From NCBI GenBank assembly GCA_947593275.1, contig CANQDN010000001.1, positions 1 to 25,986 on the forward strand: a DNA stretch of 25,986 nt. Reading direction: 5' to 3'. Below the pieces are notes generated by a model. It had not been told where the DNA came from, did no database searches, and was given only the letters and a program-made list of their open reading frames with translations. Of the stretch, positions 13,571 to 23,437 are shown one piece after another. Both the position numbers and the translations under genes were made by a program. Numbering within the stretch: position 1 is the first letter of the stretch; each line of letters begins with the position of its first letter. This stretch comes from an uncultured Bacilli bacterium (GTDB taxonomy: Bacteria > Bacillota_I > Bacilli_A > RF39 > UBA660).

Positions 13571-14479
13571 ATGATTATAGGTTCACATGTTTCGTTTGGA
13601 GCTTCGGGTTTAGTTGGAAGTGTCAAAGAAACTTTAGGATATGGAGCAAATACTTTTATGTTTTATACAGGGGCTCCACAAAATACAATTAGAAAAGAAA
13701 TATCAAAAGAGAAAACAGAAGAAGCATTTAAATTAATGAAAGAAAATAATATTAATATTGATAATGTAATATGTCATGCTCCTTATATAGTTAATTTAGC
13801 TAATAATAAAGATGATCAGAAATATAATTTTAGTATAACTTTTTTGAAAAATGAAGTTAAAAGATGTGAAGAATTGGGAGTTAAATATTTAGTATTACAT
13901 CCGGGTTCTAGTGTTGGATTAGATAAGTTTGTAGCGCTTGATAATATTGCTTTTGCTTTAAATAAAATTATAACTAGTGATATAAAAGTTAGAGTGTTAT
14001 TGGAGACGATGGCTGGTAAGGGAAGTGAAGTAGGATCTACTTTAGAAGAAATTAAGTATTTGATTGATAAAGTTAATTTGAAAGATAAGATTGGGGTTTG
14101 TTTAGATACTTGTCACTTAAATGATGCAGGATATGATATGAGTGATTTTGAGGCTTTTTTAGATAAGTTTGAGGAATTAATTGGGCTTAAATATATTAAG
14201 TGTATTCATATTAATGATAGTAAAAATGCTGTAGGGTCTCATAAAGATAGGCATGCGAATATTGGGTTTGGGACATTAGGCTTTTTAGTAATTAAAAATA
14301 TTCTCGATAATAAAAGATTAGAAAATATTCCTAAGATATTGGAAACACCTTATATTGGAGAAAATGATGAAGATAAGAATAGAATATATCCACCATATAA
14401 GTTTGAGATTGAAATGTTAAAAAAGGGAGAGTTTAATCCGCATTTAATGGAAGATATTAGGAGTTTTTATAAGAATTAG
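13571..14479 (+). CDS. nfo: Endonuclease IV
   Basis: IIGSHVS, HAPYIVNLAN, LVLHPGS, LLETMAGKGSEVG, GVCLDTCH, IHINDSK, HKDRHANIG and ILETP motifs. Confidence 0.96.
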   Translation: MIIGSHVSFGASGLVGSVKETLGYGANTFMFYTGAPQNTIRKEISKEKTEEAFKLMKENNINIDNVICHAPYIVNLANNKDDQKYNFSITFLKNEVKRCEELGVKYLVLHPGSSVGLDKFVALDNIAFALNKIITSDIKVRVLLETMAGKGSEVGSTLEEIKYLIDKVNLKDKIGVCLDTCHLNDAGYDMSDFEAFLDKFEELIGLKYIKCIHINDSKNAVGSHKDRHANIGFGTLGFLVIKNILDNKRLENIPKILETPYIGENDEDKNRIYPPYKFEIEMLKKGEFNPHLMEDIRSFYKN

Positions 14480-14939
14480 TATCAGTTTTGCCATAGAGGT
14501 AATCGGCTGAAATATGGTATTTTTTACAGATAGTGTAAGCATAGGGAAGAGATAGAAGTTTCTTTCCTTTTTCATATTCACAAATTAAAGATTTAGATGT
14601 GCCTATTTCCATAGCTAAAGTTTCTTGATATAGTTTATTTTTTTCCCGAAGTTCTTTTAGTCTCTTACCAATTAAAGTCTTATTTAAGTCTAAGTTGTTT
14701 TTTTCAAAATTGTTTTTATCACTTAAGTTTAAAGCATAATCAAAAGATATTTCTAGGTAATTGCAGATGTTGTTAAAAGCAATGATCGGGATGTTTTCTT
14801 TTAAGTTTTCGTAGTTAGAGAGGTTTGATGCTTTTATGTTGACGATTTTAGCTAGTTCTTTTTGAGTAAGACCTTTTTTTTCACGAATTTCTTTAATTCG
14901 GTTTGTTTTCATTTCATAATTATAAGTAATAGAATTCAT
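14457..14939 (-). CDS. Regulator with two tandem XRE HTH domains
   Basis: Two repeats, NRIKEIREKKGLTQKELA...SFDY and KRLKELREKNKLYQETLA...SADY. The start is probably the ATG at 14912. Convergent overlap with the nfo 3' end. Confidence 0.9.
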   Translation of the reverse strand: MNSITYNYEMKTNRIKEIREKKGLTQKELAKIVNIKASNLSNYENLKENIPIIAFNNICNYLEISFDYALNLSDKNNFEKNNLDLNKTLIGKRLKELREKNKLYQETLAMEIGTSKSLICEYEKGKKLLSLPYAYTICKKYHISADYLYGKTDTNSYKNS

Positions 14940-15098: not shown

Positions 15099-16565
15099 AT
15101 GAAATATGAGAAAATAAATAAAAATTATACTAAAACTATAATAATAAGTTTTATAGTAATAATTATAATAGGGAGTGTATTAGTATTAAATATTACAAAA
15201 GCTAAATATAAAACTACTGTTAGTGTACCAATAGTTAGTGGTACTATTAAGTATAGTGGGGGTTATGATTTTAAGATAATGGCTTTATATAAACAAAATG
15301 AAGAAAAGAATTGCACTGATGACGAATGCTATGATGAAATAGGACAAATGCCTAGTGGTGATTATGAAATAAATACATCTAAAAGTTATTGTACATTAGA
15401 TGGTGAGAATAAAGAATATGATAAATTAGCTACAATTAATGGAATACATTCAATTAAAAACTTAAAGAAAAATGAAAAATGTTATTTATATTTTGATAAA
15501 GAAGTAAAAGTAGGGGATACAATAGTTGCAAATTCTAGTGTTATAGATGAAGCCCCAACTTTTAGTAAAACATCTTGCTTACAAGGTTGTGAAGTTAGTG
15601 AAAATGGTTTATATAAAACTGAAGATGATTTTGGAGATAGTTATTACTTCAGAGGAACAGTAGAGAATAACTGGGTCAAATTTGGACAAGATAAAAGCAA
15701 TAATGATATATACTGGAGAATTATTAGGATTAATGGAGATGGAACAATAAGATTAATATATGCTGGTGTCACTAAAGATAATGGAGATCCTCCTGATCTT
15801 ACGGGATCACAAACAAATGCATTAACAGGTCAAAAATTTAATTCAAGTTATAATGATAATATGTACGTTGGTTATCAATTTGAAAGTGGGGATAAACGTG
15901 GTATTAAATCACCAAGTAATGCATATACACAATTAATGAGTTGGTTTGGAGAAAATTTAATCGAAGAATGGAACAGTGGGAATGGTCAAATAGATCCAAG
16001 TGCCGGATTTTGTGGAGATAGATCAAGCTTAACAAGTCAATCTTCATGGAAAGAAGATATGCAAGAAAGTGGAGGAACAGGTAATGCTGTAGTTACTTAT
16101 TATGGATCAAGATTAAGATTGGAAAATAGTAATAAGCAACCAACATTAAAATGTAGTACAACTAGCCATAAAAATAATGATTATTATACATTTGAAAAAT
16201 CCACTGGGATAGAGTCAACCATAAATGGAAAAATATATTCTGGGACTCAAAGTTTAGAATATCCAATAGGCCTTATAACAGCCGATGAAGTAGCTTTTGC
16301 TGGCGCAGTATCTGGAAAAGCTAATTCAGGATATTGGTTAAATACAGGTGAGAATTATTGGACAATGTCTCCGTATGGATTTGGTAGTAGTGATGGGGCT
16401 TATGTTTACCGTGTAAATTCGAGTGGTTCCATCTATAATTACACTGTTAACCATGCGATTGGTTTACGTCCAGTAATAAACCTCAAGTCTGATACCGAAT
16501 TCACATTTGAACATCCAGATCAAGCAGATAAAGGTACTTCAACAAATCCATATATTGTATCTTAA
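15099..16565 (+). CDS. Membrane-anchored surface protein, paralog B, with C-type-lectin-like C terminus
   Basis: N-terminal TM helix, several Cys pairs, YYFRGTVENNWVKFG, IYWRIIRINGDGTIRLIY, YPIGLITADEV and NYWTMSP...GLRPVINLK...GTSTNPY. Closely similar to 21952-23394. The fold assignment is an inference from motifs. Confidence 0.8.
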   Translation: MKYEKINKNYTKTIIISFIVIIIIGSVLVLNITKAKYKTTVSVPIVSGTIKYSGGYDFKIMALYKQNEEKNCTDDECYDEIGQMPSGDYEINTSKSYCTLDGENKEYDKLATINGIHSIKNLKKNEKCYLYFDKEVKVGDTIVANSSVIDEAPTFSKTSCLQGCEVSENGLYKTEDDFGDSYYFRGTVENNWVKFGQDKSNNDIYWRIIRINGDGTIRLIYAGVTKDNGDPPDLTGSQTNALTGQKFNSSYNDNMYVGYQFESGDKRGIKSPSNAYTQLMSWFGENLIEEWNSGNGQIDPSAGFCGDRSSLTSQSSWKEDMQESGGTGNAVVTYYGSRLRLENSNKQPTLKCSTTSHKNNDYYTFEKSTGIESTINGKIYSGTQSLEYPIGLITADEVAFAGAVSGKANSGYWLNTGENYWTMSPYGFGSSDGAYVYRVNSSGSIYNYTVNHAIGLRPVINLKSDTEFTFEHPDQADKGTSTNPYIVS

Positions 16566-16604
16566 TCTTGCCAATGCTGCTTTCTAACTTATTCATTGGC
16601 AAGA
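16566..16604 (+). repeat. Conserved post-stop hairpin, copy B
   Basis: Perfect 11-bp arms TCTTGCCAATG / CATTGGCAAGA with loop CTGCTTTCTAACTTATT, starting at the first base after the stop codon. Confidence 0.9.
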
Positions 16605-16618
16605 TAAAACTTCATTGT

Positions 16619-16643
16619 GAGAGAATTTTTTTCTCTCTTTTTT
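16619..16643 (+). terminator. Intrinsic terminator after paralog B
   Basis: GAGAGAA/TTCTCTC stem followed by a T run. Confidence 0.7.
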
Positions 16644-16664
16644 ATTAAAAAAATAGCCTTTTGG

Positions 16665-16937
16665 CTATTTTAAAAAGTTTTGATAACGGGCACTATATTC
16701 TTCAAAAAGTTTTTTAATTTTGCTAAAATTTTCACTACTAAAGCGATCTTTATAGCGATCTAAATTTAAAAGATTAGGGTTTTTAATAACTTGTTCCCAA
16801 TTTTTTTTAACAAAGTCATAAGTAAAATCTAGTTCTTCAGGACTTAAGTTAACATTTTTACTGATAGCAAAGTTATTTACTTCTTCTTTAGTTAAACGTG
16901 CCATTACTCTTTCTACTAAATTATACATAATATTCAC
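16665..16937 (-). CDS. Small hypothetical protein, possibly YqfT/DUF2624-like
   Basis: 90-aa helical protein. The pattern (RLTKEEVNNFAISKNVNLSPEE) loosely resembles YqfT, and the convergent position near nfo matches the B. subtilis arrangement. Confidence 0.55.
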   Translation of the reverse strand: MNIMYNLVERVMARLTKEEVNNFAISKNVNLSPEELDFTYDFVKKNWEQVIKNPNLLNLDRYKDRFSSENFSKIKKLFEEYSARYQNFLK

Positions 16938-16996
16938 CCTAATACATTGTATGAAAAAAATAAAAATTTGAATACTAATAAAGGTGACTAATTAAA

Positions 16997-18949
16997 ATGC
17001 GGAAGAAGTTTTATTTTTTAATTATTTTAATAAGTATTATATTTGGAATCTTTTTATATAGGACTTATGATTTAATGTATGTTAAACATGATTATTATGT
17101 GAGTCTTTATGATAAAATTAATAATATATATATAAAGGGAGCTAGTGCTCCTAGAGGAAGAATTTTAGATATAAAGGGGAAAGTTATTGTAGATAATTTG
17201 GGAGTTAATACAATTTTGTATCATAAGCCTAATTCTATTACTGTAGAAGAAGAAATAGAAATTGCAAAAAAGTTAAGTTATTTAACTAATTATAGTTATA
17301 GGTATGATGAAAGTAAGTTAAAAGATTTTTTTATGATAATTAAAAAGGATATAGTAGAGGGTTTAATAACTGATGAAGAAAGAAAGTTATATAATGAAAG
17401 AAAGATAACTAAAGAAGAATTAGAAGAATTAAAAAAAGAAAGAATAACAGATGAGGTTTTGGATACTTTAACTTTGGAAGAAAAATATGCTTCGTATTTT
17501 TATAATCTGATGAATGATGGTTATTATTATGATAATAAAATAATTTTAAAAGAAGTAAGTGAAGAGGTGTATGCGGAAATTTTGGAAGAAGATTTGCCAG
17601 GGATTTTTGGGGAGATCGCGTGGGTTAGGTACTATCCTTATGAAGATACTTTAAAGAGCTTATTAGGAAGTATTAGTAATAGTCTACCTGAGGATAAGAA
17701 AGATTTATTAAATAAAGGTTATTCTTTAACAGATAAAGTGGGAATAAGTGGATTAGAAGAGTATTATGAAGAATATTTGCGAGGAGAAAAAGCAGTTTAT
17801 AAACTTGAAGATGGGAAATTAGTTTTAGTAAGTCCGGCTTCTCGGGGGAATGATTTAGTGTTAGAAATTGATATGGATATCCAATTAAAAGTTGAAGAAA
17901 TAATGAAAAAAGAGATGGCTCAAGCTAAAAAGGTGCCAAATACAGAATATTATAATGAAAGTTATGTGTTGATTGCTAATCCTAAAACGGGAGGAATTGT
18001 TGCTTCAACAGGTCTTAGAATAAATGATAAAGATCTTGGATATCAAGATGTAACTATAAATATAACTAAAAATGCATATACAGTAGGAAGTATTGTAAAA
18101 GGGGCTTCAATGGCAGTGGGATATCAAAATAAAGTGATAGATATTGGTTCAACAATGTTAGATAGTTGTGTGAAACTTAATTTTAAGCCAGCGAAATGTT
18201 CATGGACAAGACTCGGAGTAATAAATGATATAGATGCTTTAGCTCAAAGTTCTAATTATTATCAATTTATTATTGCCCTTGGGGTTGCGGGTTATAAATA
18301 TAAATATAATATGGATGCCCCAGTAAAAATAGAGGATTTTAACAAATATCGCGATACTTTTGCAAGTTTTGGGTTAGGGAATACTACTGGTATTGATTTA
18401 CCTCGTGAAACAAGCGGTTTAAAAGGAAATATTGTTGCTCCAGATTTACTTATGAATTTAGCAATTGGACAGTATGATTTATATACACCTCTTTCTTTAT
18501 TACAATATATGGGAACGATTGCGAATAAGGGAGTAAGATTAAAATTACGACTGGGTCATAGTATAATTAAAGATGAAAAAGTAATTGAAGAAAATCCCGT
18601 AACGGAACTTAATAAAGTAGATTTAGAAGAGAAGTATTTAAATAGGATAGAGGAAGGTTTAGTGGCAGTTATGAATTCAGGTACAGGATATTATTATGCG
18701 CCAAGAGGAATTAAAGCAGCGGGTAAAACAGGAACAAGTGAATCATATATTGATATAAATGGTGATGGAAGAAATGATGCATATGTAATCAGTAATACTT
18801 TTGCAATGTATGCTCCTTATGATGATCCAAAGTATGTAATGGTAGTAATTAGTCCTAATACAAGTAATTTAAATGGAAAAAGTAGCTATCAATCAGGGGT
18901 AAATCGCTTAATTGCACGAGAAATTAACGATTATCTCTTTTCAAGCTAA
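16997..18949 (+). CDS. Class B penicillin-binding protein (PbpA/PBP2B-like)
   Basis: N-terminal anchor, APRGRILD, VGISGLEEYYEEYLRG, catalytic S-x-x-K (GSIVKG), S-x-N (SSN) and KTG triad. Confidence 0.93.
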   Translation: MRKKFYFLIILISIIFGIFLYRTYDLMYVKHDYYVSLYDKINNIYIKGASAPRGRILDIKGKVIVDNLGVNTILYHKPNSITVEEEIEIAKKLSYLTNYSYRYDESKLKDFFMIIKKDIVEGLITDEERKLYNERKITKEELEELKKERITDEVLDTLTLEEKYASYFYNLMNDGYYYDNKIILKEVSEEVYAEILEEDLPGIFGEIAWVRYYPYEDTLKSLLGSISNSLPEDKKDLLNKGYSLTDKVGISGLEEYYEEYLRGEKAVYKLEDGKLVLVSPASRGNDLVLEIDMDIQLKVEEIMKKEMAQAKKVPNTEYYNESYVLIANPKTGGIVASTGLRINDKDLGYQDVTINITKNAYTVGSIVKGASMAVGYQNKVIDIGSTMLDSCVKLNFKPAKCSWTRLGVINDIDALAQSSNYYQFIIALGVAGYKYKYNMDAPVKIEDFNKYRDTFASFGLGNTTGIDLPRETSGLKGNIVAPDLLMNLAIGQYDLYTPLSLLQYMGTIANKGVRLKLRLGHSIIKDEKVIEENPVTELNKVDLEEKYLNRIEEGLVAVMNSGTGYYYAPRGIKAAGKTGTSESYIDINGDGRNDAYVISNTFAMYAPYDDPKYVMVVISPNTSNLNGKSSYQSGVNRLIAREINDYLFSS

Positions 18950-18999
18950 GGTTTTTCTGTTATAATACTGCTAGACTTTTTTATAAAGGAGGTGCAGTT

Positions 19000-19164
19000 A
19001 TGGCTAAAAATGAAAATAGAAATTATGTAACTATGAAGTGTACTGTATGTGGTGAGGAACTTAGATGTACAAGTAAGAATAAAAAGAATACTCCAGATCG
19101 TTTAGAAGTTAAAAAATATTGTAAAAAATGTCATAAACATCAAATTGTTAAAGAAAAGAAGTAA
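19000..19164 (+). CDS. rpmG: 50S ribosomal protein L33 (zinc-binding C+ form)
   Basis: Not in the ORF track. Manual translation MAKNENRNYVTMKCTVCGEELRCTSKNKKNTPDRLEVKKYCKKCHKHQIVKEKK*, with RBS AAGGAGG upstream. Confidence 0.95.
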   Translation: MAKNENRNYVTMKCTVCGEELRCTSKNKKNTPDRLEVKKYCKKCHKHQIVKEKK

Positions 19165-19172
19165 AATAGGAT

Positions 19173-19343
19173 ATGAAAAAGAAGAAATTTAAATTATATA
19201 AGACTACTGGTTATTCCCCAATTATGGCAGCTTTTGGAACTAAAAAGATAGATAGTAAATTACCTAATATGTATTCAAATCCTGTAGTAATTAATAATAA
19301 GAAAGTTAAAAGTAATACTAGTAGGAAAAGAAATAAAAGATAG
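19173..19343 (+). CDS. Small basic hypothetical protein (56 aa)
   Basis: MKKKKFKLYKTTGYSPIMAAFGTKKIDSKLPNMYSNPVVINNKKVKSNTSRKRNKR*. The ATG lies 8 nt after the rpmG stop, after TAGGA. Confidence 0.55.
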   Translation: MKKKKFKLYKTTGYSPIMAAFGTKKIDSKLPNMYSNPVVINNKKVKSNTSRKRNKR

Positions 19344-19353
19344 GAGTATACAT

Positions 19354-19515
19354 ATGATTAGGGGAACACATAGATTACAAAAAGTTAATTTTAAATCTCC
19401 GATTATTGCAATTATGAGTAATAAAAAAGAAGAAATTAGACGGGAAGATAAGAAACCCAAAACAAGAATGCGGAAAAAAAGATATGGAATATTTACAAAG
19501 AAAGTGGAGGTGTAA
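19354..19515 (+). CDS. Small basic hypothetical protein (53 aa)
   Basis: MIRGTHRLQKVNFKSPIIAIMSNKKEEIRREDKKPKTRMRKKRYGIFTKKVEV*. Its RBS AGGAG overlaps the previous stop, and the ORF ends 3 nt before the efp start. Confidence 0.6.
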   Translation: MIRGTHRLQKVNFKSPIIAIMSNKKEEIRREDKKPKTRMRKKRYGIFTKKVEV

Positions 19516-19518
19516 GAA

Positions 19519-20079
19519 GTGAATATAAATATAAATGATATTAAAAATGGTATGACGATTATTATGGATAATAATCTATATCAAATTGTAGAGTTTCAAC
19601 ATGTTAAACCGGGTAAAGGATCTGCTTTTGTTAGAATGAAATTAAAGAATTTAAGAACGGGATCTATTACAGAAGATACATATAATACTAATATTAAGAT
19701 CACAAAAGCTCATATAGATAGAATGCCAATGCAATATTTATATGCAGCAGGAGATAATTATGTATTTATGAATAATGAAACTTATGAACAAATTGAAATA
19801 CCAGTTAAAACTTTAGGAGATCAAGTTAAGTTTATTAAAGAAGGTTTAGATATTACTGTTGATTATTATGAGGGAGAAATACTTGGTATTACTCTTCCAG
19901 AGAAAGTAGAATATGAGATTGTTGAAACTGAACCAGCAGTAAGAGGAAATACAACAAATAATGCTCAAAAAGATGCGAAGATTGAGACTGGTTATGTTGT
20001 AAAAGTTCCTTTATTTATAAATGAGGGAGAAAAGATAATTATTTCTACTCGTGATGGAAAATATTCAAGTAGGGCATAG
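19519..20079 (+). CDS. efp: Elongation factor P
   Basis: FQHVKPGKGSAFVRMKLKNLRTG, EPAVRGNT and ETGYVVKVPLFINEGEKIII-STRDG-Y motifs. Confidence 0.97.
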   Translation: MNININDIKNGMTIIMDNNLYQIVEFQHVKPGKGSAFVRMKLKNLRTGSITEDTYNTNIKITKAHIDRMPMQYLYAAGDNYVFMNNETYEQIEIPVKTLGDQVKFIKEGLDITVDYYEGEILGITLPEKVEYEIVETEPAVRGNTTNNAQKDAKIETGYVVKVPLFINEGEKIIISTRDGKYSSRA

Positions 20080-20112
20080 GCTCTATTTTTTTTGGAAATA
20101 AAAAAAGACTGG

Positions 20113-21207
20113 TTAGTCTTTATAGAGATTTTTTTCTTTTTTGTAGGATGTTATAGCCGAATTATCTTTTATTAAATTAGATATGGAATCTCCTTTATTT
20201 AGGTTATCAATTATTTTAGCAAGATAAGTAGAACAATCAGCAGCATAGAACCATTCTTTATTTAAAATATCTTCGGGGATATAGGTAAGATTAGTGGAAT
20301 AAACTGCATCAAATAAGTTATTTTGATAAGCTTTATCAAATACTTCACAACCTGTTGTAAATAGGGCAAAGGTGGTAAAGAAGAAGATTTTTTTAGCACC
20401 TCTTTTTTTAAGTTCACCTGCAACATCAAGCATAGAAGAGCCACTGGCGAGCATATCATCTACAACGATTATAGATTTTCCTTTAACACTGCTACCTAAA
20501 TATTCGTGGGCGACTATGGGGTTTGAGCCATTGACAATTTTTGAGATATCACGTCTTTTATAAAACATTCCAACATCAACTCTTAATATGTCTGCGAGCC
20601 ATCTTGCGCGATCCATAGCTCCAGTATCTGGGCTTACTACAAGAGTTTTAGTGGGATTGAACTCTTCATTTTTTAAGAATAATTTTAACATATCATTGGT
20701 TGCATAAAAATTGTCAAATGGAAGAGTGGGGATAGCGTTTTGAACGTTGGGATCATGAGCATCAAAGGTAATTATACCACTTACGCCGAGATTTTTTAGT
20801 TCTTGTAAAGCAGCCGCACAGTCGAGAGATTCACGAGATTTGCGACGATGTTGTCTTGAAGAATATAAGAAAGGCATGACAACTTTAATACTTTTCGCGT
20901 GACCCATGATGGCTAGAATAGTTCTTTTAATGTCTTGCAAGTGTTCATCGGGACTCATGTGATGAATAAAATCATACATTTTGTAGGTAATACTGTAGTT
21001 ATGGGTATCACTTATAATGTAGACATCTTTGTTGCGAATACTTTCTAAAATATTTACTTTTCCTTCACCATCATTAAAACGAGATATTTTGATGGGAACG
21101 AGAAAATTTTTTTCGGTTTTACGAATTTTTTTAATTTCATTGTTAATTTTTAAGCCTAATTCTTCACAATTATTCATGACAATTAAGCATAAATCATCTT
21201 TTTCCAT
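20113..21207 (-). CDS. prs: Ribose-phosphate pyrophosphokinase
   Basis: RFNDGEGKV, PFLYSSRQHRR, TFDAHD, VVSPDTGA, YKRRD and IIVVDDMLASGSSM motifs. Confidence 0.94.
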   Translation of the reverse strand: MEKDDLCLIVMNNCEELGLKINNEIKKIRKTEKNFLVPIKISRFNDGEGKVNILESIRNKDVYIISDTHNYSITYKMYDFIHHMSPDEHLQDIKRTILAIMGHAKSIKVVMPFLYSSRQHRRKSRESLDCAAALQELKNLGVSGIITFDAHDPNVQNAIPTLPFDNFYATNDMLKLFLKNEEFNPTKTLVVSPDTGAMDRARWLADILRVDVGMFYKRRDISKIVNGSNPIVAHEYLGSSVKGKSIIVVDDMLASGSSMLDVAGELKKRGAKKIFFFTTFALFTTGCEVFDKAYQNNLFDAVYSTNLTYIPEDILNKEWFYAADCSTYLAKIIDNLNKGDSISNLIKDNSAITSYKKEKNLYKD

Positions 21208-21328
21208 ATAAACTTTTACTCCTTATAGTTTTATTTTAACATATTTTAGTTAGATATAAGAATAAGAAAACACTAACTTTACATAAGAAATTAAAAAAGA
21301 TTCTAATTTTTATTTAGAATGCTTTAAA

Positions 21329-21615
21329 TTTAGTTGTTTAGAATGCTTTTGGGATAGGGTTTTCTTTCATCAGTACGATATAAAAGATAGTCAATACTAG
21401 TTTTATAATAATCGGCAAGTTTATGTAATGTTTCAATAGGAATGTTGGTATCTTCTCTTTCGTAATGGGAATATCCTCTTTGACTAATATTTAAAATTTG
21501 AGCAATTTCGACTTCTAGTAGGTCATGATCTTCTCTTATTTCTTTTAATCTATTCATTTTACTTTCTCCATTTTTTACTTTAGTTGTTTAGAATGCTTTT
21601 GGGATAGGGTTTTCT
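21329..21615. repeat. 37-bp exact direct repeat (21329-21365 and 21579-21615) forming the 3' ends of both XRE genes
   Basis: TTTAGTTGTTTAGAATGCTTTTGGGATAGGGTTTTCT occurs twice, 250 bp apart. A 13-bp partial copy TTTAGAATGCTTT lies at 21313-21325. Confidence 0.92.
21330..21557 (-). CDS. XRE-family HTH regulator
   Basis: MNRLKEIREDHDL...EIAQILNISQRGYSHYE...IPIETLHKLADYYKTSIDYLL pattern. Confidence 0.9.
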   Translation of the reverse strand: MNRLKEIREDHDLLEVEIAQILNISQRGYSHYEREDTNIPIETLHKLADYYKTSIDYLLYRTDERKPYPKSILNN

Positions 21616-21825
21616 AGTGTCAGTTAGGCCTAATATATAGTCACTGCTTATGTTGTAAAATTTGGCTAATTTAATTAAGGCATCAATGGGTATTTGTCTT
21701 TTTCCAATTTCATAATAGCTATAGGCACTTTGGGTGATGTTAAGAAGATTAGCGATATCTTCTTGTTTTAAGTCTTTATCCTCTCTTAATCCTTTTAATC
21801 GCTCTAAAATTATGTCGTTATTCAT
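21580..21825 (-). CDS. XRE-family HTH regulator
   Basis: ERLKGLREDKDLKQEDIANLLNITQSAYSYYEIGKRQIPIDALIKLAKFYNISSDYILG pattern. Confidence 0.92.
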   Translation of the reverse strand: MNNDIILERLKGLREDKDLKQEDIANLLNITQSAYSYYEIGKRQIPIDALIKLAKFYNISSDYILGLTDTRKPYPKSILNN

Positions 21826-21872
21826 AAAAACACCTCTTACTTTCTTTTCTTATATTTTAATTTAAATCAAAT

Positions 21873-21933
21873 TGTTATATTGACTTTTATGACGAACTGT
21901 TATAAAATAATTTATATATAACATATTGTTATA
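21873..21933 (+). promoter_or_regulatory. Promoter of paralog C with repeated TGTTATA operator half-sites
   Basis: TTGACT (21880)-17-TAAAAT (21903). TGTTATA occurs at 21873, 21898 and 21927. Palindrome TATAACA-TAT-TGTTATA at 21917-21933. Confidence 0.65.
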
Positions 21934-21951
21934 AAAAAGGATGTGGAAAAG

Positions 21952-23394
21952 TTGAAGTATGAAAAATTAAATAAAAATTATACTAAAATTATTATAATGG
22001 GGTTAATAGTAATAATTATAATAGGTAGTGTATTGGTATTAAATATTACAAAATCAAAGTATAAGACTACTGTTAGTGTGCCTATTGTTAATGGTACTAT
22101 TAAGTATAGTGGTGGTTATGATTTTAAGATTATGGCTTTATATCAGCAGAAAGAGAATCAAGCTTGTGATGATGATAATTGCTATGAAAGTATAGATAGA
22201 ATGCCATATTCTGGATATGTTATAAATACAGATAAAAGCTATTGTAGTATTAATGGCAATGAAAGGGATACAGAAGCAAAATTATATACTGAAAATGGTA
22301 AACATATTATTGAAAATCTTGCTAAAAATGAAAAATGTTATTTGTATTTTGATAGAAGGGCAGAAAGTGTAATAATTGCTAATTCAAATTTTATAGAGGG
22401 AATTCCTGATTTTACAAAAACAACTTGTGATGCTATATGTGCCGATAGTAACTCAGCTTTATATAAAATAGAAGATGATTTTGGGGATAGTTATTACTTT
22501 AGAGGAACAGTGGAAAATAATTGGGTAAAGTTTGGAAAAATGGGAAGCGATGGAGCAGATATTTATTGGCGAATCATTCGAATAAATGGAGATGGAACAA
22601 TCAGACTCATATATTCTGGGAATGATAATCCTGCAATAACTGGAGCACAAACAAATGCACTAAGTGGATCATTTAATGGAACATATGGCGATAACATGTA
22701 TGCAGGTTATGAGTATCAAAAAGATATAGCTCATGGAAGAGGCACAAAAAGTTCTGCCTTAACTACATTAGAAAAATGGTTTGAAACTAATTTAGTAGAT
22801 GAATGGAATAATGGGGATGGAAGAATAGATATAAATGCCGGTTTTTGCAATGACAGATCAAATTCAACAAATAGTAATATAACATGGCAAGAAAATTTGC
22901 CTGATACTGGAGGTACTGGAAATACATATACATATTATGGAGGATTTTTAAGAATAGAAAGAAAAAAGGACCCTATGTTGAAATGTAGCACGAATGCTCA
23001 TAAAAATGATGATTATTTTACATATGAAAAGTCAATAGGTATAAAACAGAATGGAACAGTTAGTACGATTATAAAGGGAACTCAAAGTTTAAAGTATCCT
23101 ATAGGAATTATTACTGCTGATGAAGTAGTTTTTGCAGGAGGAGTATGGGGTTCAGTGAATTCAGGATTTTGGTTACATACTGATCAAAATTATTGGACAA
23201 TGACTCCTGATTATTTTTCTCCTTCAGTTCAATTTGTGTTTAGTGTCGTGCAGAGTGGTGGTTTTACTAATCTTAATGTAAGTAATTCTAGTGGTTTTCG
23301 CCCCGTAATTAATTTAAAAGCTAATACTAAATTTACTTTTGAACATGAGAATCAGCCAAAGGGTACTTCATCTAATCCCTATATAGTATCATAA
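21952..23394 (+). CDS. Membrane-anchored surface protein, paralog C, with C-type-lectin-like C terminus
   Basis: Same block structure as 15099-16565. The TTG at 21952 aligns with the Met of paralog B and is better spaced from the AAGGA than the GTG at 21943 used by the ORF track. Confidence 0.8.
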   Translation: MKYEKLNKNYTKIIIMGLIVIIIIGSVLVLNITKSKYKTTVSVPIVNGTIKYSGGYDFKIMALYQQKENQACDDDNCYESIDRMPYSGYVINTDKSYCSINGNERDTEAKLYTENGKHIIENLAKNEKCYLYFDRRAESVIIANSNFIEGIPDFTKTTCDAICADSNSALYKIEDDFGDSYYFRGTVENNWVKFGKMGSDGADIYWRIIRINGDGTIRLIYSGNDNPAITGAQTNALSGSFNGTYGDNMYAGYEYQKDIAHGRGTKSSALTTLEKWFETNLVDEWNNGDGRIDINAGFCNDRSNSTNSNITWQENLPDTGGTGNTYTYYGGFLRIERKKDPMLKCSTNAHKNDDYFTYEKSIGIKQNGTVSTIIKGTQSLKYPIGIITADEVVFAGGVWGSVNSGFWLHTDQNYWTMTPDYFSPSVQFVFSVVQSGGFTNLNVSNSSGFRPVINLKANTKFTFEHENQPKGTSSNPYIVS

Positions 23395-23437
23395 TCTTGC
23401 TTACATTGCTTTTCTAACTTATTATATGTAGGCAAGA
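23395..23437 (+). repeat. Conserved post-stop hairpin, copy C
   Basis: Arms TCTTGCTTACAT / ATGTAGGCAAGA (12 bp, one T.G pair) with loop TGCTTTTCTAACTTATTAT, starting at the first base after the stop codon. Confidence 0.88.

Follow-up and report, generated by a model that had tools for sequence, protein, structure and literature searches.

Two putative surface-protein genes of an uncultured Bacilli bacterium, most likely former targets of a remote diversity-generating retroelement

A 25,986-nucleotide stretch of DNA (the window) from an uncultured Bacilli bacterium carries two intact members, B and C, and the 3' remnant of a third, A, of a dispersed surface-protein family whose coding sequences end in a hypervariable tail. 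The window is contig C1 (27% GC) of a 1.14-Mb rabbit-gut metagenome-assembled genome (MAG; 1.135 Mb in 133 contigs, 86.5% complete), and the sequencing runs in which the stretch was found among Logan contigs are rabbit-gut and gut metagenomes. A sequence-only reading of the window had put these genes forward as targets, or descendants of targets, of a diversity-generating retroelement (DGR) located elsewhere in the genome. The reverse transcriptase (RT), the template repeats (TRs) and the protein fold described below support this proposal. Of its two options, descent from a target is the more apt for B and C, because their tails have drifted at non-adenine positions like ordinary paralog DNA and a profile of the template units misses both. 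We conclude that both genes most likely were DGR targets in the past and now persist as fixed, drifting variants of a large surface-protein family.

B (15099-16565, + strand) and C (21943-23394, + strand) are intact open reading frames (ORFs), read from their translations, of 488 and 483 aa; C displays the same architecture as B. Over their whole length the 2 proteins are identical at 296 of 497 aligned columns (~60%), and the number of identities per 30-residue block ranges from 13 to 28, in agreement with the alternation of conserved and divergent blocks that had been noticed beforehand. Their N-termini are highly similar, albeit at 57 of 66 residues on recounting rather than the 58 originally given. 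The window has three occurrences of G-x-RPVINLK, one per copy (GIRPVINLK in A, from base 44; GLRPVINLK in B; GFRPVINLK in C), and the variable stretch starts after YWTMSP in B and YWTMTP in C. Codon counts within that stretch proved exactly as claimed: 25 of 30 codons in B (16374-16463) and 23 of 29 in C (23209-23295) end in a pyrimidine (NNY codons), with 2 and 3, respectively, ending in A. In the remainder of the genes, pyrimidine-ending codons make up ~50% and A-ending codons 37-42%, a significant difference for both B (Fisher p = 0.0003) and C (p = 0.004). As a control for amino-acid composition, we restricted the comparison to four-fold codon boxes. A-ending codons made up 2 of 14 in each tail versus ~49% elsewhere (p = 0.02 and 0.012; pooled p = 0.0003), so that the composition of the tails is controlled for as a source of the signal. 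The variable region (VR) of B (16367-16472, + strand, 106 nt) has a GC content of 41.5% compared to 30.5% for the gene, and that of C (23202-23304, + strand, 103 nt) one of 38%.

A DGR-type RT is present elsewhere in the genome, as had been suggested, and lies on contig C9 together with Avd and MutS-like genes, beside a paralog. It is the only match in the genome to Pfam RVT_1. The genes are arranged on one strand in the order 469-aa B paralog (termed D), 140-aa MutS domain I ORF, 116-aa Avd-like ORF and 369-aa RT; the 2 ORFs adjoining the RT match MutS domain I and bAvd/DivGenRetAVD, and the RT, Avd and MutS-like genes are all intact. The RT possesses a YMDD motif and the motif IGNMTSQ, which DGR RTs typically carry. 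Among solved structures, it matched best to 8ub7, a 328-aa reverse transcriptase (E = 3e-26) that we take to be the Bordetella phage DGR RT; group II intron RTs matched at E = 1e-9. The surroundings of the RT cassette and of the window copies showed no phage genes. A PD-(D/E)XK 'transposase' gene (PDDEXK_2, Rpn-like; Pfam-checked) lies near the cassette on C9 (L002:3631-4473), and a similar gene, judged by eye, is found near the pair of templates on contig C118 described next (L003:2797-3318).

The expectation that the genome would contain a template repeat was borne out: the assembly holds four TRs, one of which forms a clean adenine-only pair with a paralog, but none that matches B or C. All four are stand-alone units, two on C118 and one each on C41 and C20. 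Three of them (both C118 units and that on C41) were recovered as AAY-rich, non-paralog copies by an ungapped scan that allowed either a match or a template A at each position and used the core of D's tail as the query; the fourth (TR4, on C20) was located via a spacer motif. An initial scan with 151-161-nt tails that included 3' flanks had returned paralogs only, and it was the core-length query that exposed the TRs. The first three templates depart from all VRs directly after GGTTTGCGCCCA, and the long queries missed them because of this divergence directly past GCGCCCA. The four units can be aligned across ~300 nt and share a layout consisting of a promoter-like box and GGGTTAATCTA, the template (97-109 nt, 31-35% A), a conserved spacer with TAGGAWACAAGATTARTCC, a terminator-like hairpin and a T run. 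The templates themselves differ, TR4 being distinct from TR1-3, which keep the common 3' end. When run on the assembly, a profile of the TR unit matched exactly four spacer-bearing units, plus 15 paralog tails over the template part only; the C9 tail aligns weakly past the template part, and since it sits in the D gene it is not a unit. The same profile gave zero matches in the window, the tails of B and C included. A metagenome pattern scan with B-specific flanks gave 0 matches. A metagenome scan with the 19-nt spacer motif gave 5, none of which fitted the TR-unit profile, and these were set aside as probably due to chance. In more distant relatives, whose RTs are ~50% identical, tandem arrays of 3-6 TR units lie directly upstream of avd-RT (L034:3977-7116, and also L031, L033, L035, L036 and L041). 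The L034 array contains five units of ~335 nt, each with its own TATAAT-like box, with different templates and a near-identical ~150-nt spacer.

Each tail was aligned to the TR that fits it best, and mismatches at adenine and at non-adenine template positions were counted separately (44 aligned tails). TR1 lies directly downstream of the C118 paralog, and the VR of that paralog differs from it at 16 positions, all of them template adenines, compared to 0 of 72 other positions (chance value ~3e-8). The two are a textbook TR/VR pair. About 15 paralog tails are still TR-like in their DNA, and 8 display a non-adenine mismatch of no more than 10%. In these 8 (C118, C111, C5, C16, C9, C95, C105 and C89), non-adenine mismatch was 0-10% and adenine-site mismatch 30-60%, with flanks diverged by 18-48%; a scaffold that stays template-identical despite diverged flanks is the signature of repeated rewriting. 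The corresponding values for B were 25% (17/69) at non-adenine and 57% (21/37) at adenine positions, with 28% divergence in the upstream flank, and those for C were 36% (24/67) and 53% (16/30), with flanks at 32-42%. Neither B nor C, then, exhibits homogenisation, their non-adenine divergence being equal to that of the flanks and of ordinary paralogs. Across the family, the paralogs grade continuously from perfect adenine-only pairs to fully decayed tails, and GC content forms a gradient as well: 45-55% in TR-like VRs, 39% in B and 34% in C over a common 105-nt stretch, and 30% in the genes.

B retains a clear imprint of its template. Its codons line up one by one with those of TR1, save for a single missing codon, and its mismatches are enriched at adenines (Fisher p = 0.0014; 3 gap columns). 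Codons of B that face template AAY end in a pyrimidine in 12 of 14 cases. At the 14 adenine-free template codons the amino acid is kept in 12 and the codon in 6, and the changes to scaffold codons are mostly synonymous and run from G/C to A/T (GTG to GTT/GTA, GGC to GGT, TTG to TTA, CGC to CGT). The 5' match of B to the template is exact (GTCTCCGTAT), and in scaffold retention B ranks 15th of the 44 tails. At the 3' end of the VR, which corresponds to a GC-rich element resembling an initiation of mutagenic homing (IMH) site, B reads GGTTTACGTCCA and C reads GGTTTTCGCCCC, each agreeing at 10 of 12 positions with the sequence shared by TR1-3 and the TR-like VRs. The full 3' identity with a template that would be expected of a current target is lacking in both, and neither tail differs from any of the four assembled TRs at adenines only. 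B instead combines the features expected of a past target, namely colinearity, variable codons aligned with AAY, NNY codons and kept scaffold residues. Adenine enrichment against the best TR was not significant for C (p = 0.12; 5 gap columns), in which the NNY bias and the depletion of A-ending codons alone remain.

The fold anticipated for the C-terminal domain, that of a C-type lectin, was borne out by structural matches of a model of B. The AF2 model (alignment of 50 sequences; mean pLDDT 86.2) comprises an N-terminal helix (residues 9-36) that includes a hydrophobic anchor stretch, a beta-rich stalk (~60-135) and a C-terminal domain (~136-488). In an exhaustive structural comparison, the best match was the N-terminal DUF6273 domain of the T. 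ramosa IgA peptidase (9qa6; Z 13.2, 210 residues, 20% identity, model residues 136-488), followed by the C-terminal domain of Legionella Lcl (Z 6.2) and T. denticola TvpA (2y3c; Z 5.6); more than 25 canonical C-type lectin domains matched over residues ~192-463 at Z 4-4.7. In the viral library BFVD, phage DUF6273 proteins lead with a probability of 1.00. At the level of sequence, B scored below the gathering cut-off of Pfam DUF6273 (PF19789; E = 0.012, 15.9 bits vs 23.5) and C gave no match to it. The weak match of B (residues 416-464) involves only the final 46 positions of the profile and coincides exactly with the tail, and several paralogs and homologs carry precomputed PF19789 matches. 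Based on the model, the C-terminal domain of B and C is predicted to be a DUF6273/C-type-lectin-like domain with the VR at its end, and the predicted topology and fold point to a role of the family proteins as surface adhesins or receptors.

The family is large. Searches with tblastn identified 68 loci, 43 of which are at least 1.2 kb long, amounting to 75 kb or 6.6% of the assembly, and public data contain more than 6,500 homologs. A divergent XRE gene, encoding a single or tandem helix-turn-helix (HTH) protein, lies ~60-250 bp upstream on the opposite strand in 30 of the 38 paralogs that have an N-terminus, indicating that the duplicated unit is a module of XRE gene plus surface-protein gene. 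In most congeners in which both genes were located, nfo and the penicillin-binding protein (PBP) gene that flank the XRE+B module here are adjacent and the module is absent, from which it follows that the module is an insertion in this lineage. Congeners G001 and G007 carry a 1.7-2.1-kb insert at the nfo-PBP site. The RT family comprises 306 loci in gut MAGs that go by names such as uncultured Bacilli, Tenericutes and 'Mycoplasma sp. CAG:776/956' and presumably belong to the order RF39. Within the genus, the RT is present in 35 of 44 genomes and intact in most; it is interrupted by stop codons in about five (G009, G012, G031, G038 and G040) and was not found in 9 of the 44, seven of which are at least 90% complete. 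Six of these nine were searched for the family and all hold many paralog matches, indicating that the targets outlive the element. These distributions suggest that the DGR element was lost repeatedly in the genus while its targets were retained.

We propose the following course of events. The family would consist of membrane-anchored surface proteins in which the DUF6273/C-type-lectin-like domain ends in a DGR variable region. According to the standard mechanism, the RT would copy template RNA with errors at adenines, and the resulting cDNA would replace the homologous VR, thereby altering the ligand-contacting stretch between YWTM(S/T)P and G-L-R-P. B and C would each have been written once by such a template, B clearly by one resembling TR1, and would later have diverged from it by ordinary drift that was AT-biased and mostly synonymous. 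They would now be fixed-specificity variants, each with its own divergent XRE regulator. We regard this explanation as a whole, comprising the family, a remote DGR, past writing of B and C and their later decay, as well supported and probable. It builds on a family, an RT/Avd/MutS-like cassette, templates, an adenine-specific TR/VR pair, a decay gradient and a fold that were all observed here. From the pattern of sequence decay, the DGR appears to be currently active, and B and C appear to be no longer rewritten.

Several points nevertheless weigh against this explanation. TR4 ends in CGTCCA, demonstrating that AT-shifted ends can occur in templates; several TR-like VRs are without an exact cognate TR in the assembly, and their alignments need 6-9 gap columns; and 21 family matches touch contig ends of a 133-contig assembly that is 86.5% complete, so further TRs, including ones cognate to B or C, may be unassembled. 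Rewriting of the TR-like VRs and its absence at B and C are read from sequence decay: Logan contigs of four runs, which list no informative variants in either VR, have a depth of only ~2-9x, too low to speak for or against variation. In an exact cluster look-up, B formed a cluster of its own and C, D and the RT were not retrieved, so that there were no strain variants to compare. Across congeners, housekeeping DNA is only 68-78% identical and the XRE+B module mostly absent, leaving no orthologous VRs for comparison. Finally, the adhesin or receptor role is predicted from topology and fold. Some of these points bear on the question whether B and/or C are still live remote targets whose cognate template units are missing from the fragmented assembly. 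Dispersed, repeat-rich TR units are likely to be lost from an incomplete assembly, templates vary between TR4 and TR1-3, and B retains an exact 5' match, 10 of 12 positions of the 3' homology and a place among the upper half of tails in scaffold retention. However, the scaffold codons of all four TRs are G/C-rich, whereas those of B and C are AT-shifted synonyms throughout. At non-adenine positions the two genes diverge as much as their flanks do, as expected without rewriting, and the TR-unit profile has no match in the window. We therefore consider it unlikely that either gene is still being rewritten.

A history for B and C that involves no DGR, in which the tails vary by ordinary paralog divergence, recombination or diversifying selection and the NNY bias reflects composition, appears very improbable. 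The tails are indeed rich in Ser, Asn, Tyr and Gly, the block-wise identity of B and C could stem from mosaic recombination, and the mismatches of C were not significantly enriched at adenines. However, the depletion of A-ending codons persists within four-fold boxes, a comparison that takes composition into account, and this history would leave aside the codon colinearity of B with TR1, with the variable codons of B opposite template AAY and a scaffold altered mostly at synonymous sites, as well as the continuous gradient from adenine-only pairs to fully decayed paralogs. We also asked how the data would read if the whole DGR were a relic in this genome, with an intact-looking RT, no present mutagenesis and all paralogs frozen, the TR-like ones included. 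An RT that is pseudogenised or was not found in several congeners is in keeping with such a state. Yet the RT, Avd and MutS-like genes are intact and their catalytic motifs preserved, and the C118 pair, with 16 of 16 mismatches at adenines and zero scaffold drift, indicates rewriting that was recent relative to the drift of the other copies. This makes a relic element rather improbable. Taken together, these considerations leave B and C most likely as former targets within a DGR system that probably still operates on other members of the family.

The sequence-only reading had treated 15099-23394 as the range of the family; this holds for B and C, but the ORF at 16997-18949 inside it is the penicillin-binding protein gene and was ruled out as a family member, and the third copy lies outside the range. 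That copy, A (2-127, + strand; recovered by a six-frame motif scan and tblastn), is truncated by the contig start. It matches B residues 441-487 over positions 2-121 in tblastn and consists of the end of a decayed variable region, GIRPVINLK, and a C-terminal tail (DPYVIK) followed by the stop codon; its scaffold codons are AT-shifted compared to the TRs (GGA ATT CGT CCA). Divergent from B lies a tandem-XRE regulator gene with two HTH domains (14457-14939, - strand; RstR/HipB-type HTH matches in NCBIfam), with nfo (13571-14479) flanking the module, and divergent from C an XRE regulator gene (21580-21825, - strand; from the ORF list and tblastn with XRE proteins) 127 bp upstream of C. A conserved hairpin follows the stop codons of A (about 133-175), B (16566-16605) and C (23395-23437), with arms TCTTGCC...GGCAAGA and a loop with CTAACTTATT. 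We considered and rejected it as a DGR target-site hairpin: it lies ~95 nt past the VR end and is missing after the C118 and C9 targets.

A more far-reaching model, which we put forward tentatively and as less probable than not, is a repertoire that is written, duplicated and archived. One RT/Avd/MutS-like machine would serve many autonomous template units and rewrite a subset of ~60 XRE-gated receptors, retired copies being archived as fixed specificities. If true, this would be a multi-template, multi-locus DGR organization well past the one-TR, few-target systems described so far. Irrespective of this model, a cellular lineage with a 1.1-1.5 Mb genome spends ~6.6% of this assembly on one DGR-linked receptor family. 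To our knowledge, prokaryotes have no natural system of targeted protein hypermutation other than DGRs, and the DUF6273 targets that we know of were described mainly in gut phages. The lineage is uncultured and is represented by gut MAGs from rabbits, mice, humans and birds that carry the names Bacilli, Tenericutes or 'Mycoplasma sp. CAG'. The attachment of these reduced organisms to host or partner cells may depend centrally on a hypervariable repertoire of adhesins. The gradient of VRs from freshly written through drifting to decayed makes it possible to examine how targets come under DGR control and leave it, and how variants become fixed by duplication. In the full-text literature we found no paper that pairs RF39 with DGRs and none on template-repeat arrays.

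Remote and leftover targets, DGRs with multiple VRs and occasionally multiple TRs (PMC6642488), accessory genes of the MutS-like MSL type and DUF6273 as a target domain are all already known. What appears unusual here is that a reduced genome holds so large a paralog family, that its copies are paired with XRE genes, and that the templates come as several autonomous units, dispersed in this genome and arrayed in relatives. In gut phages, DGR targets carry the VR at the C-terminal end of a DUF6273, C-lectin-like domain (PMC10743442, PMC11792537, bioRxiv 10.1101/2024.10.15.618418). The present family resembles these targets (tentaclins, Mtd-like; Faecalibacterium prophages; Toutatisvirus) in its Pfam domain, C-terminal VR, fold and AAY-rich template and in having more than one target per element. 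It differs in that the genes are cellular, are anchored by an N-terminal helix, number ~60 rather than 1-2 and are paired with XRE genes, and in that B and C lack a matching template. The best structural match, the Thomasclavelia ramosa IgA peptidase (9qa6), has its DUF6273 domain fused to an M64 peptidase and was not reported as DGR-diversified (PMC12402451); unlike that protein, the family members contain no peptidase domain. The cassette on C9, with MSL, avd, RT and an adjacent target, corresponds to DGR 'Architecture D', which is defined by avd and an MSL accessory gene (Wu et al. 2018, PMC5758913). In contrast to that architecture, no TR lies within the C9 cassette, and the templates form separate modules resembling transcription units on other contigs. 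A parallel to B and C is found in T. denticola, which has 2-7 targets, among them remote and 'leftover' ones and some with 'excessive mutations', and in which targets persist in strains without RT or TR (PMC4891356). Like the TvpA family of that organism, the family described here combines one RT with several dispersed, paralogous surface proteins of C-lectin fold. Whereas T. denticola relies on one TR, an HRDC accessory gene, an FGE-sulfatase-type domain and lipoprotein anchors, the present system possesses ~60 paralogs, at least four TR units, an MSL accessory gene, the DUF6273 domain and a transmembrane anchor.

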